Below, piece by piece: positions 20,501 to 41,500 of a stretch of 64,000 nucleotides of DNA. Source of the DNA: Klebsiella pneumoniae (GTDB lineage: Bacteria > Pseudomonadota > Gammaproteobacteria > Ga0077536); the NCBI GenBank assembly GCA_945861225.1, contig CAMATU010000001.1:10418-74417 (forward strand). Direction: 5' to 3'. The position numbers were made by a program. Numbering within the stretch: the first letter of the stretch is position 1; each line of letters opens with the position of its first letter.

Positions 20501-23500
20501 AGGAAGGTCGCCACGCCGGCTGAGGCGAGACCGGCATCGTAGTGGAATTCGGCCAGCAAATGAGACAGCGCGGCTAACCGCAACGCGGTGAAATCATGCC
20601 GCAACGCGGGCTCAGCCTGGGCCAGGGTCCGGCGATAGGCCTGGAGCTCGAGCATGCTGTAGCGTGCTGCGATACGTGGCGCATGCTGGATAATCCAGGC
20701 GTATTGAATTTCCTCGGCGCGGAGCAGCACTGGGCCCGCGTCCCATAAGGTGTCATCCAGGTCCAATGTCACGAGTTCGATCACGAAGTTATCCAGTCGC
20801 AGCAGAGACGCCAGCATAGCGCAGGCGGCGAGCAGAGAAGGTTACAATGTCACGCCGCACAAATCTGGAGAGGCGCCGATGCCGTCGTTCGATATCGTGT
20901 CCGAAGTAAACCTGCATGAGCTTACCAATGCAGTGGATCAGGCCAAGCGGGAAATCGACAACCGTTTCGACTTCAAAGGCACGGGCACGAAAATTGAGCA
21001 AAAAGAACATGTGATGACCATCACCGCGCAGACTGAGTTTCAGGTCAAACAGGTGCTGGAGATTCTGCGCATGAAAATAGCGAAACGCAGTATCGATGTG
21101 AGCTGCCTGGAGCAGGGCCCCCTCAGCGCGGCACTCAATGAAGCGCGCCAAACGCTGACCGCCAAGCACGGCATCGACAAAGAAGTCGGAAAGAAGGTGG
21201 TCAAGTTCATCAAAGAAGGTGGCGCGAAAGTCCAGGCACAGATCCAGGACGAGCAGGTACGGGTGACTGGCAAAAAGCGCGACGATCTGCAGGAAGTCAT
21301 CGCTGCGCTGCGCGGGGCTGATCTGGGTATGCCCCTGCAGTTCAGTAATTTCCGCGATTGACCGGGCATGTCAGGCGTCCAGGAGCATTTCTACGCCTGT
21401 CCGTACTGCGGAGAGACGATCTCCAGTCTGCTTGATTTATCGGAAACGGCGCAGCGCTATATCGAAGATTGTGAGGTCTGTTGTCGACCTATTGAAATCG
21501 CGTTCGCGGTCACTGCTAACGGAGATCTGCAATCTTTTTCTGCGCAGGATCTCGAGTCTTGATGGCGGACGCCTTAATTCTGTTACTCATCCTTGGGCTG
21601 GTGTTGGCGCTCTGGCATTGGAGTGTCCTGGGGCGTGAAAGGGTGCTCGCCATCAGTGGCGAAATTTGCCGCGATCTGAACATGCAGCGTCTGGATGATT
21701 CGGTGGCGTTACATGCCCTGCGCCTGGTCCGCGCCCCGCAGTTCGCGCTGGAGCGGCGCTACGCGTTTGAGTTCAGCACTGATGGGAGTGATCGTCGGCG
21801 CGGCGAGGTGGTGCTGCTGGGCTTCGCCCTGCAGCTCGCACGGCTGGAACTGCCGGATGGACCGTTACTGATTGAGATTGGTGGGCGTGGGGCTTCTTGA
21901 GCCCGGTACTTGCCGGATTTAGACTTATCGCGAAAACCAAAGGCCGCGACCTTCCCCGCTGTCGTTGCGAGGAGCGCAGGGACGGATAAAAACACTCATC
22001 GGCATTGCTGTACTGCCCAGCGCAGTCGCCACTCGAGTTACCCCGTCATTCCAGAAACCGCACAGCGGTTATCTGGAATCCATGTGGCCTCTCAAGCGCC
22101 CCTGGATTCCAGCTTTCGCTGGAATGACGGTAGGTTATGTATGGTGCGCGAATAGCGACTTTACGCACGCTTGACTCGAGTCTTGGAGCGAGTTCGAGGT
22201 GACTCTGTTTAGTCAATCATCGCGCAGACGCGCCGCTAATTCCTCGATCAATGATTGATCGTGGGCCTTGGCGGCAGTGCGCGCTAATTGGGCGCGCTGC
22301 TTGATGCGCTCCAGATGGGTTTTCTGATTGGCGAACATCTGGCGCGATAACTGATCACCCGTTTGTTCTTCCTGATCGCGTAACCACGCTTCAATTTCTT
22401 CCTCAAAACGCCCGCGCGTGACGGCTTCTTCGTGCCGGTTATGCTCCAGGTTCTGCTGATTGCGTGCCGCTGCCGCCTGGACGCGCTGGCGAGCTTCTTC
22501 GGCGGCCGCTGCATTGGCGCGTGCGGCGCTGACTTCCGCTTCAATGCTCGCGACATCCGCCGCGAGCTGAGCCTCGCGATCGGTGCGCGCCGAGCTGTCG
22601 CGCGCGCGCGCTTCGGCGGCTTCCTGCAACTGCTGCTCCAGGCGCTGTTGAATTGTCGCCGCCTGCTCTTGTGAGCGCTGAGCTTCGGCCAACGCCGCGC
22701 GCAATTCGCCGGCTTCACTCTCCAGCCTGGCGCGTTCGACGCGCAGTTTTTCTTCTTCATGTTCGCGCATTTGTGCGTGCGCGAGTTTGTATTCCTGGAT
22801 AATCCGCTCTGCTTCATCCGCCGCTGCCGCGCGGGCGGTCTCGGCGGTCGCTTTGTCGCGTCGCGCGCGTTCAAGTTCCTCGGCGTTACGCGCGAATTCG
22901 GCTTCGAGCTTACGCCGCTCCCCATCGACTTTGGTTTGAATCTCGTCGCGCAGCTTGCGTTCAAGCTCCAGCTGCCGCACCTGGCGTGCTTCAGCCTCAC
23001 GCGCACTGATCACGCGCGCTTCTTCGACTTCGACTTGCATGCGTTTCGCTTCGGCCAGGCGTTTTTTCGCTTCGTCAGACGCTAACTTAAGGTGTTCACG
23101 TTCGGCCACCAGCTGTTGTTCCGCCTCTTCCTTCATGCTTTGCAGGCGCGCGAGCTCTTCGGCCTGCCAGGCATAACTTTCTTCAAGTTTTTTCTCTTCT
23201 TCGCGTAAGCGCCGTTCGGCCTCGGTACGCATCTGCTGGATGCGTTCTTCTTCCAGGCGCTGGCGTTCGCTGGCCTCCTCTTCGGCGCGTCGCTTTTCTT
23301 CCTCGATTTGCGATTTCAGGCGCTGCGCCTCTTCCCAGGTGCGCTGGGCGCGCGCGGCTTCCTCGGTGAGCCGAGCCTGCTCCTCTGCCATCCGCAAGGT
23401 CGCGGCCTGTTCCATCGCGAAACGCGCTGCCTCGGCTTCTTCACGCAGTCGTTGGGCAGCTTCAATCTGGACATTGGCTGCTTGGATGTCGGCCTGCGAT

Positions 23501-38500: not shown

Positions 38501-41500
38501 GTTCAAACCGAGGGAGGGAGGCCGGCATTTCTAAATTCCAGAGGACCGATTTATGGCATCCGAACGGTGGTTTTTATCCAGCTGACACTGTTAGCGATAC
38601 TCCGCAGTTAAGGTCGCGTCAAAAAGCCGTATCAAGATAGTTTTCCGTCGGGATGACGCATCTCCTGTTCACAGATTGAACAGCACATGCCTATAATGCG
38701 TTCACTCTTTGAACGCGACTCTATGTCAACTGACCGCGAAGAAGCCCTGACCCTCGAAATTCTCGCCGCGATCGACGCCAAAAGCGACGTGACACAGCGC
38801 CATTTGGCCGATCGGTTGGGGGTCGCGCTCGGGCTCGCCAATTCTTATTTGCGGCGTTGCGTGCGTAAGGGCTTCGTGAAAATTACCCAGGCGCCGGCTA
38901 ATCGTTATCTGTACTACCTCACCCCGCAGGGCTTCACTGAGAAGAGCCGGCTCACCGCGCAATACCTAAGTGCTTCTTTCGACTTCTATCGGCGGGCGGG
39001 TGAATCAGTCAGGCAGGCGCTATATGCGTGCGAAACCAAAGGGGTGAAAAGCATTCTGTTCGTCGGCATTTCCGAGCTGGCGGAAATTACATCGGCCCGA
39101 AGTCATGACGTCGCGTTCGAGATTGTGGGAACTTACGCGCCGCGTAGCACACGCGCCGCGTATCTCGGTAAGCCAGTATGGCCCACACTGGCGTCAGCTC
39201 GACCGTTCGATGTGGCAATGCTGACGGCGCTCGACGATTGCGTCAGCCTCTATCAAGAACTCGCAGCAGAACTCGGCACGGATCGCCTCGTCATCCCGGA
39301 TCTCCTGCAACCATTGATTGATGCGAAACTTAGAGAGTCCGTGTGATGGCAATCGTTGAATTACGGGGAATGATTTCCGCTGGCGACAAGCTTCGCCCCG
39401 CGTCACGTGAGCAGCCATGCGCCTCAACGCATCACTCGCCGCCAAGCGCACAGACCTAATTCAGAGGGAGACCAAAACGTGGGCTACCGATCACCATACA
39501 AAATCGAAAACCGAAAAGTCCGCTTTGCGGTGGTTGGCTGTGGGCGTATCTCAGACCGACATTTCGATGCGCTAAAGACGCATTCCGAACGAGCAGAGCT
39601 GGTCGCGGTCTGCGATTCTGACCGCACCGCCCTTGAGAAAACGGCCGAGGCCCATGGAGTTGAAGGCTACGAAAGCATAGAAGCGCTGCTCAGCAAGTCC
39701 GAAGCAGACGTGGCGGTGCTGTGCACCCCAAGCGGTCTGCATCCCGCCCAGGCAGTACAGCTCGCGCGCGGTGGTCGTCACGTGGTGACCGAAAAGCCTA
39801 TGGCGACCCGCCTTGCCGATGGCAAGCGCATGGTCGCGGCCTGCGACGAGCAAGGTGTACATCTGTTTGTGGTCAAACAGAATCGTCTGAATCCTACCTT
39901 GCAGCTGGTGAAACGTGCGCTGGTCAAGAAACGCTTCGGGCGCATCTACATGGTGAACGTAAACGTGTTCTGGACCCGCCCACAGTCCTACTACGATTCC
40001 TCCCGTTGGCGCGGCACCTGGGAATTCGACGGCGGCGCGTTCATGAATCAAGCGAGTCATTACGTCGATTTGCTCGACTGGTTGATCGGTCCAATCGAAA
40101 GCGTACACGCCTACACGTCCACGCTCGAACGCAATATTGAAGTAGAAGATTCCGGTGTCGCGAACATCAAGTGGCGTTCCGGTGCACTGGGCTCGATCAA
40201 CGTCACCATGCTGACCTACCCGCGCAATTTGGAAGGCTCGATCACAATCCTCGGCGAGAAAGGCACGGTGCAGGTAGGCGGCGTGGCGGTTAATGAGATC
40301 AAGCACTGGGAATTCGCGGAGCCGGACGAGGACGACGCCAAAGTCGCCGACGCGAGTTACGGCACGGCTTCGGTCTACGGTGTCGGTCACCCGCTGTACT
40401 ACGACAACGTGATTCGCGTACTGCGCGGTGAAGCACGCGCGGAAACGGATGGACGCGAAGGGCTGCGTTCACTTGAGACCTTGATCGCGATGTACACCTC
40501 GTCACGTGACGGGCGCCGCGTGTCGTTGCCGCTTGAGTATTGAGAAGAGTCTTATGAGTAAGTTCAACGTGCATGCGACGGCGATCGTGGATGAGGGTGC
40601 ACAAATCGGCGATGGCACGCGAATTTGGCATTGGGTGCATGTGAGCGGTGGTGCCCGCATCGGCGCAGGTTGCTCTCTTGGACAGAACGTGTACGTGGGA
40701 AATCGCGTCATCATTGGTGACAACGTGAAGATCCAGAATAACGTCTCGGTCTACGACAATGTCACCTTGGAAGACGGGGTGTTCTGCGGTCCGAGCATGG
40801 TGTTCACCAATGTCTACAATCCGCGCTCGGATGTTTCGCGCAAGGATGAATACCGCGACACCTTAGTTAAACGCGGCGCTACCTTGGGCGCGAACTGCAC
40901 CATCGTGTGTGGTGCCACGGTCGGCGAGTACGCGTTCGTCGGCGCCGGCGCCGTGGTGAATCGCGACGTGCCAGCATTCGCCTTGATCGTCGGCGTGCCT
41001 GGGCGGCAGGTCGGGTGGATGAGTCGTTTTGGTGAGCGTTTGCGGCTACCGCTGACGGGCAATGCAGAGGCAACCTGCCCACATACCGACGATCACTATG
41101 TGTTGCGTGATGACGTTTGCCTACTTGTGAGCAAGGTATGAACGTTACACGAGAGGGATCCAAATGAAAGTAAATGCGAAATATGAGAATGGCAGGCTGT
41201 CCTTCCACTCTCCACTGACACTGCGACATGCAAGCGTCGAAGTCGTGGTAGAGATCCCAGACTCCGAAATTGAATCAGTGCAGTTCGATGAGGTCACCAT
41301 GCGCATGGTGGAGAAGTTGGACGCGATCCGTAATGCGCCGCTCCCCACTGAACAAGACGATCAGCCATCCACGAAACTGGACCGGCTCGATGCCTTCGCG
41401 CGCTTCAGGGACGTTTGATCGTGGATTTACTGCTTGATGTGAATATTGTGGTGGATATCTGTCAACCGAGAGCGGACGCGGCACGTGCGCTGCTGACGAT

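Follow-up and report, generated by a model that had tools for sequence, protein, structure and literature searches.

The CGTC-tagged repetitive extragenic palindromes (REPs) are defined by a terminal unpaired CGTC, sometimes TGTC or CCTC, and a hairpin (Di Nocera, De Gregorio and Rocco, BMC Genomics 2013, PMC3733652). Their stems are 8-9 bp long and almost always begin with an A-T followed by a T-A pair, their loops are 4-5 nt long, with longer loops mentioned only for CGTC-1 of Bradyrhizobium, and their tail is CCA (PMC3733652). Head-to-head (HH) dimers predominate, tail-to-tail (TT) dimers are rare and head-to-tail (HT) dimers negligible; heterodimers are frequent and the spacers measure 20-100 nt. 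The class has been found mainly in Alphaproteobacteria, without association to transposase genes (PMC3733652). Here we analyze a 64-kb stretch of DNA (positions 10,418 to 74,417 of contig CAMATU010000001.1, hereafter the window) that contains a family of intergenic palindromic elements with CGTC termini, and we conclude that these elements are very probably CGTC-tagged REPs, mostly arranged as HH heterodimers.

Anatomy of the units and comparison with described systems

The motif CGTCATYCCRG has 11 matches in the 64 kb of the window, as compared to a mean of 0.15 in dinucleotide-preserving shuffles, none of which (0/100) reached 11. With a profile built from the units, ten significant units (E-values from 8e-11 to 0.06) were identified at five loci spanning positions 22044-37244, and these make up four HH dimers (A, C, D and E), one single unit (B) and one truncated unit (Table 1). 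Pairs C and E and the reverse complement of pair D can be aligned from end to end with 71-83% identity, while A, which is 75% identical to D, is a shorter relative with TTCCAG where C, D and E have CCCGG. An earlier note on this DNA had claimed a modular palindromic REP-like family, which is borne out by the excess of the motif, the profile units and the mutual alignments; the termini and internal modules that it quoted were found where it had placed them. Two of its copies are drawn differently here. Copy B, previously given as 34895-34974, does contain a unit, but the right terminus is absent: the segment 34895-34932 fits the profile over a 10-nt tag only (34895-34904, E = 7), and a weak candidate for a decayed partner is located near 34994-35030. 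Copy E, given as one copy at 37103-37244, does consist of CGTC elements, but these are a truncated unit followed by a complete pair. A proposed half-site at 38645-38658 fits the profile over only about 10 nt (E = 6.8) and is indistinguishable from chance, as is an extra CGTCATCCCGG at 39289 inside a coding ORF (open reading frame; E = 1.5).

Table 1. Positions of the CGTC units and pairs, of the longer segments that carry them and of the PIN fragments on either side of pair E.
Feature	Position	Strand or units	Basis and remarks
Pair A, HH dimer	22044-22129		motif and profile matches; DNA fold z = -7.6
A left unit	22044-22082	+	extended stem AACCGC/GCGGTT
A right unit	22103-22129	-	canonical CGTC-1 type: CGTC ATTCCAGC GAAA GCTGGAAT CCA, 8-bp stem, 4-nt loop
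277-nt segment enclosing pair C	30853-31128		perfect 16-nt inverted repeat AAAAGGGGACAGATTT at ends
Pair C, HH dimer	30923-31027	units 30923-30962 (+), 30983-31027 (-)	alignment and profile; DNA fold z = -6.7
Unit B, single	34933-34971	+	91% identical to A left unit; DNA fold z = -6.4
Partial diverged composite copy carrying D	36350-36521	-	end repeat AAATAGCCCGCACTG (36350-36364), 57-nt arm
Pair D, HH dimer	36407-36511	units 36407-36452 (+), 36473-36511 (-)	alignment and profile; DNA fold z = -6.2
PIN (VapC-like) pseudogene, N-terminal fragment MRVVDTSAWIEWMVRS	36971-37018	+	translation; PIN assignment inferred from motif
Composite element carrying E	37030-37301	+	ends 37030-37044 and 37287-37301; arms about 60 nt; near-identical to F except for a 37-nt insertion in E
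Truncated CGTC unit, AAGTGC type	37103-37131	+	E = 1e-5; 3' arm displaced by inserted unit
Pair E, HH dimer	37135-37244	units 37135-37178 (+), 37199-37244 (-)	DNA fold z = -4.1
PIN pseudogene, C-terminal fragment	37300-37407	+	match to Pfam PIN (positions 94-117 of 120) with E = 1e-4 and 23.2 bits, just below the cut-off of 23.6

A sixth pair, F, was identified 33 kb past E on the same contig (locus L225, positions 19640-19744), where it adjoins a ribbon-helix-helix (RHH)/PIN gene pair. The six loci are thus spread over 48 kb of one 124-kb metagenome contig (ENA ERZ27280297 k141_497481); the portion of this genome covered here amounts to about 72 kb. The D-E region was reproduced by the independent assembly of a second sample (8149 nt, 99.96% identity, zero gaps). 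Between the two samples in which this contig occurs, the sequences are the same or 99.96-99.99% identical without indels, and no empty site was recovered from them.

Each unit consists of an unpaired 5' CGTC tag, an 8-bp basal stem (ATYCCRGN), an inner part, a complementary arm that ends in AT, and a CCA tail. The tag is present in all ten window units, and both the AT...AT stem ends and the CCA tail are present in all nine complete ones. The inner part can be a 4-nt loop (right unit of A) or, across a one-base bulge, a second stem of 5-6 bp, such as AACCGC/GCGGTT, ATTTGC/GCAAAT or AAGTGC/GCACTT, with a longer and irregular module in the right-hand type. In the eight complete units other than the right unit of A, the arms of the 8-bp basal stem are separated by 16-23 nt that form a further covarying stem. 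The two units of a pair are unlike internally, their tags point outward (4/4 pairs) and their CCA tails face each other across about 20-25 nt. Every pair is predicted to fold far more stably than shuffled sequences, whether as DNA or RNA and on either strand (z from -3.6 to -7.6), which answers a check suggested in the earlier note. In its predicted minimum-energy fold, a pair forms a four-way junction, with additional pairing of the two tags to each other; the alternative is two independent hairpins. A scan of the whole window at Rfam gathering scores gave no match, and ARAGORN identified no tRNA or tmRNA in it.

The tag, the AT-first stem, the CCA tail, the HH dimers and the heterodimers fit the published definition, and on these grounds the window elements belong to the CGTC-tagged REPs, their basal stems ATCCCGG and ATTCCAG being placed in the class by its feature description and not by a comparison of consensus sequences. 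The right unit of A fits CGTC-1 exactly, and its translation, VIPAKAGI, is the peptide of a CGTC-1 unit of Rickettsia conorii (supplement of PMC3733652). Most window units are a long-stem variant of the class. The families CGTC-1 to CGTC-4 are also similar to the window elements in that they are mostly intergenic and patchily distributed among species, with some dimers nested in longer palindromes (PMC3733652). The class was described already in 2013, and no new mechanism was found here. Placing the repeats of this uncultured bacterium in it adds little alone. For annotation the units are of practical value, since they give rise to spurious small ORFs, flag intergenic regions that vary and can disrupt metagenome assemblies.

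Two families that are known under other names have been assigned to the same class, dRS3 of Neisseria to CGTC-1, and RPE-6 and RPE-4 of Rickettsia to CGTC-1 and CGTC-4, respectively (PMC3733652). The dRS3 pattern, ATTCCC(N8)GGGAAT, is matched by some right-hand units of the form GGATTCCCGC..GCGGGAATGAC among the pairs listed from other genomes (see below), and the mosaic, modular arrangement is likewise shared. In the neisserial NIMEs, however, dRS3 repeats are interleaved with RS elements in long arrays, whereas those in the window are isolated pairs, and dRS3 is an established integration site of Nf filamentous phages, nothing of the sort being seen in the window. Many of the Rickettsia palindromic elements (RPEs) reside in frame within functional genes, unlike the window units, which are intergenic or located in a pseudogene. 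The GTAG REPs of E. coli and Pseudomonas, with their bacterial interspersed mosaic elements (BIMEs), REPINs and REP-associated tyrosine transposases (RAYTs), are similar in having a short hairpin, an unpaired 4-nt tag and inverted doublets that are the likely replicating form, and in their location downstream of genes, but the tag in the window is CGTC, not GTAG. By analogy, the GTAG REP or REPIN is most plausibly what the window element works like. A full-text literature search with the terminal sequences returned unrelated primer matches only.

Occurrence in other genomes and absence from syntenic relatives

The pattern CGTCATYCCRGA-N13-19-TCYGGRATCC was searched for in viral contigs and species-representative genomes, and matched at least 119 genome loci and 23 viral contigs. 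The counts given below refer to the matches listed; those of dimers, spacers and neighbors are based on 142 loci (1.06 Mb) among them. The genomes belong to Bosea, Xanthobacteraceae, Kaistia, Rhodanobacteraceae, Lysobacterales, Pseudomonadales, Burkholderiales, Syntrophobacterales and others, and long-stem variants of the class are therefore widespread in Alpha-, Beta-, Gamma- and Deltaproteobacterial genomes, and also occur in some viral contigs. Nearly all of the matches have the two-hairpin design, with right halves that in some cases are GGATTCCCGC..GCGGGAATGAC. We identified 297 units in the 1.06 Mb, and the adjacent unit pairs are 99 HH (tags outside), 5 TT (tags inside) and 5 HT (tandem), with a median spacer of 24 nt. 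Heterodimers account for 90 of the 97 distinct dimers, and 26 of the 97 combine an extended with a short-loop unit, as A does.

Since the two halves have unlike basal stems in 90 of 97 pairs, the conserved feature is the hairpin of the individual unit. Among 131 distinct units, collected with a pattern that does not force complementarity, stem position 7 is T-A in 86 and C-G in 45 with no mismatch, and position 10 is G-C in 117 and A-T in 8, with 6 exceptions. The CCA tail is present in 144 of 151 matches elsewhere, its final A being outside the search pattern. In an alignment of 68 distinct units of equal length, eight of the 14 base pairs change on both sides (143 cells); neither the covariation score nor the number of double-change cells was reached in any of 500 shuffles, and all slid controls collapsed. 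The first two pairs are A-U and U-A in all 68 aligned units, both of which were forced by the search pattern. Covariation in the stem is thus strong, and the hairpin is conserved.

The matches in viral contigs show that CGTC repeats also reside in prophage or phage-like DNA. In the IMG/VR contigs L006, L010, L018 and L024 and their relatives, the CGTC pair apparently occupies one common position, as judged by the shared flanks; a portal protein is encoded elsewhere on L018.

We also compared the window to 80 syntenic loci from other metagenomes, 831 kb in total, that were retrieved via the VWA protein. The closest of these relatives have a DNA identity of 75-82% in the best-conserved genes, and no CGTC unit was detected at E <= 1 in the 831 kb. 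At the C locus, the relatives have a much shorter intergenic region (87 nt in L145, the sole relative measured) than the window, where it measures 323 nt, and the extra DNA is located upstream of the promoter-proximal TGCATTACAATGC, which is kept in the relatives L145, L146 and L159. Likewise, at the A and B loci, the window exceeds most relatives compared by about 250 and 190 nt, respectively. These sequence comparisons support a gain of the elements in this lineage.

Longer carriers and gene context

Several pairs in this genome form the center of longer elements that are bounded by inverted repeats. Pair C is enclosed in a 277-nt segment that is missing from nine syntenic relatives, and a third copy of its end motif AAAAGGGGACAGATTT, at 31057-31068, pairs with the right end of the segment as a 22-bp hairpin. 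This segment may be a separate small mobile element, or its repeats may be operator sites in a divergent promoter. Pairs E and F reside in the middle of a composite element of about 232 nt that resembles a miniature inverted-repeat transposable element (MITE), with end repeats AAATAGCCCGCACTG and TA at both borders; the copy of F is located at positions 19567-19801 of L225. E and F are about 95% identical over the 232 nt, including both arms and the end repeats, and D shares with them the pair and one arm in inverted orientation. Because D and E are inverted relative to each other and share 57 nt of flank, they are copies of one composite element and not independent events. All three copies of the composite element adjoin toxin-antitoxin genes or their remnants, and the AAATAGCCCGCACTG end repeat was seen in this genome only.

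The difference between E and F is a stretch of 37 nt, AGACGTCATCCCGGAATTTGCAACGCAAATATCCGGGG, which corresponds to one complete unit of the C-left type (the ATTTGC-type left unit of E) and is located within the 3' arm of the resident unit. E and F have no exact match longer than 87 nt, which is below the k-mer of 141 that the k141 contig names imply for the assembly, and the assembly from the second sample is gap-free in this region; the difference is therefore real. It could represent an insertion, a deletion in F or gene conversion. The whole-unit difference, the absence of units from 831 kb of relatives and the nesting in young carriers are the reasons to consider that extended-stem CGTC pairs are a still-active REPIN-like replicator in this lineage, an idea that we regard as unlikely. 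If true, population metagenomes of this organism could catch new insertions and point to the enzyme that moves CGTC REPs. The E/F pair and the inverted-repeat carriers would be reasonable places to seek recent events.

The strongest competitor to the reading as CGTC-tagged REPs is that the mobile unit is the longer inverted-repeat element (of about 232 nt with AAATAGCCCGCACTG ends, or of 277 nt with AAAAGGGGACAGATTT ends), and that the CGTC pairs are its passengers or old residents. The near-identity of E and F over the whole composite element including arms and ends, the single arm of D and the absence of the segment around C from all nine relatives are as expected for such carriers, and in Halothiobacillus neapolitanus all CGTC-1 dimers are found within 41-bp palindromes (PMC3733652). 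Yet A and B have no such outer repeats, the two carriers are unrelated to one another and present in only 2-3 copies each, all on one contig, while CGTC pairs of the same design are found in hundreds of unrelated contexts in other genomes. Longer carriers would thus account for the local spread of some copies but not for the nature of the CGTC units, and we consider this alternative possible but doubtful.

Pair A is located between convergent genes, 143 nt past the stop codon of a DUF3301 gene and 83 nt past that of a gene for a 1307-aa protein with a cyclic nucleotide monophosphate (cNMP)-binding domain, and C is in the intergenic region of divergent Sel1 and AAA-ATPase genes. The proposed placement between convergent or divergent genes therefore holds for A and C, but not for B, which is flanked by same-strand genes and situated 81 nt past the stop codon of a 69-aa ORF, nor for D and E, which are located among toxin-antitoxin remnants. 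The further suggestion that two copies interrupt toxin-antitoxin genes applies in part to E, which has PIN fragments on either side, but not to D, where no HEPN match was obtained. About 80 PIN codons are missing between the two fragments and E is the core of a 272-nt composite element, so that this is not a clean insertion.

At 35946-36352, a gene for an MntA-like nucleotidyltransferase antitoxin is followed by a short frameshifted ORF that ends at the start of the composite element carrying D; a search for the HEPN toxin partner in this ORF gave no match. Between the inverted D and E copies, we observed a 73-aa ORF without family match (36606-36827) and a 44-aa fragment (36837-36971) that ends just before the start of PIN. 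The 36350-37301 block as a whole resembles a toxin-antitoxin islet that has been rearranged and lies between inverted repeats. A test for paralogy between the PIN/RHH pair beside F and the remnants beside D and E was negative.

The gene context also bears on the suggestion that the elements are immobile and selected in the host as 3' mRNA-stabilizing stem-loops, terminators or sites for nucleoid proteins, as proposed for the BIMEs of E. coli. A is downstream of two convergent genes, B and F are each downstream of a same-strand gene, and the hairpins are predicted to be very stable as RNA on both strands; REPs in general are mostly located downstream of ORFs (PMC3733652). However, no T-run follows the hairpins and none of the units was called in a terminator scan, C is in a divergent promoter region and E in a pseudogene, the orthologous genes of the relatives do without the elements, and the Rfam scan gave no match. 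Host selection as the origin of the elements is improbable, but a regulatory role is compatible with the CGTC-tagged REPs as a secondary, co-opted role.

Proposed mode of copying and other repeats in the window

The hairpins, the dimer design and the lineage-specific presence of the CGTC-tagged REPs are shown here; the mode of copying we infer from the GTAG REPs and REPINs. By this analogy, the pair would be a non-autonomous selfish element that is copied by a trans-acting enzyme, with a single-stranded hairpin as the intermediate, and its internal modules would be shuffled by gene conversion or template switching between units. Once resident, the hairpins could function in mRNAs as 3' stem-loops, or be substrates of recombination or targets of insertion. 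To our knowledge, neither an enzyme that copies CGTC REPs nor a RAYT gene with CGTC units on its flanks has been reported to date. Of the ORFs and gene calls that were scanned across about 72 kb (with Pfam for those of the window), none contained a transposase domain, ORFs shorter than about 90 aa in parts of the window being outside the scan; the window contains no Y1_Tnp (RAYT) domain, and no insertion sequence (IS) was seen in the 72 kb. Clustering of 960 ORFs from the 142 loci in other genomes and viral contigs revealed no protein family that recurs near the elements beyond a phage portal protein and ABC-F. Both of these negative results agree with the published lack of association with transposase genes.

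Several points weigh against the reading as CGTC-tagged REPs. Eight of the nine complete units have a stem of about 14 bp with a bulge, as compared to the stem of 8-9 bp and loop of 4-5 nt in the class table. The mobility of the elements is putative: the relatives are only 75-82% identical in the best-conserved genes, their intergenic DNA is too diverged to be aligned, and no exact empty site was recovered. The extra DNA at A, B and C exceeds the pair itself, and the copy count is based on 72 kb of the genome. Lastly, the E/F difference could be due to a deletion in F or to gene conversion instead of an insertion.

The earlier note described the family as MITE/REP-like, of which the REP part fits the tagged hairpin units and HH dimers. 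Classical MITEs would be deletion derivatives of an IS whose movement depends on a DDE transposase; this enzyme would bind the 11-bp terminal inverted repeats CGTCATCCCGG, and target-site duplications would result. Like bacterial MITEs (Correia/NEMIS, RUP, ERIC and Nezha), which are about 100 nt long, non-coding and foldable with inverted termini, the window elements are 86-110 nt long, non-coding and bounded by perfect inverted termini of 11-12 bp, and they are missing from syntenic relatives, with one element inside the PIN pseudogene. What separates them from MITEs is that flanking direct repeats of 1-7 nt are no more frequent than expected by chance in 86 distinct dimers, A, C, D and F among them, so that no target-site duplication was detected, that single units with one terminus exist (B, and many elsewhere), and that 90 of 97 dimers have unlike basal stems in their halves. 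Also, no transposase was found in the window, and no candidate protein family recurs near the 142 loci. Conservation falls on the tag, hairpin and tail of each unit and not on transposon ends: the termini are the outward CGTC tags and basal stems of two autonomous REP hairpins. An origin as classical MITEs is therefore highly improbable.

That the elements are local segmental duplications rather than a dispersed family can be dismissed, since, although all ten window units lie inside 15 kb of the 64-kb window and D and E are inverted duplicates together with 57 nt of their flank, the flanks of A, B, C and D/E are unrelated, their modules differ and their identities are only 71-83%, a sixth copy is located 33 kb away, the six loci extend over 48 kb, and the same design is found in many genera and in viral contigs; local duplication applies to the D/E/F subgroup only, and the earlier claim of a dispersed family stands.

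The repeats at 29398-29434 and 33248-33316 had been proposed as relatives of the CGTC elements but belong to a different family of ATAG-tagged, GTAG-type REPs; the CGTCATCC that they share is located in the loop and the 3' arm, not in the tag. These REPs, ATAG GGCGGAT ... ATCCGCC, were identified at 20049-20107 (-), 29387-29440 (+) and 33238-33310 (+). The copies at 20 kb and 33 kb are dimers with their tags outside and a second unit, ATAG GTCGGAT ... ATCCGAC, while the remaining copy is single. We take the ATAG-type REP to be similar to the REP of E. coli and other enterobacteria, which a BLAST search against E. coli genomes did not confirm, as it gave no match. The presumed likeness draws on RPDK-type peptides in the supplement of PMC3733652. 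A third REP family, GTAGGAGCGGCTTTAG(G/C)CGCGA, forms a near-perfect inverted pair at 29301-29382 (DNA fold z = -8.15) and has a single copy at 33377-33402. This family presumably resembles the GTAG REPs of the Pseudomonas type. Since GTAG-type REPs are present, a RAYT gene may lie elsewhere in the genome.

Two further features of the window were observed. The regions 22213-26136 (-) and 26825-29272 (+) encode divergent paralogous proteins with cNMP-binding and rhodanese domains, of which the 1307-aa paralog contains at least nine copies of a repeat that has a period of 129 nt (43 aa) and shows a strong AT skew, probably a coiled-coil extension. Between 46000 and 56000, the GC content is 49-53%, as compared to 56-62% elsewhere, over a polysaccharide or O-antigen-type cluster that includes epimerases, glycosyltransferases, WbqC and two asparagine-synthase paralogs, and that looks like a horizontally exchanged cassette.

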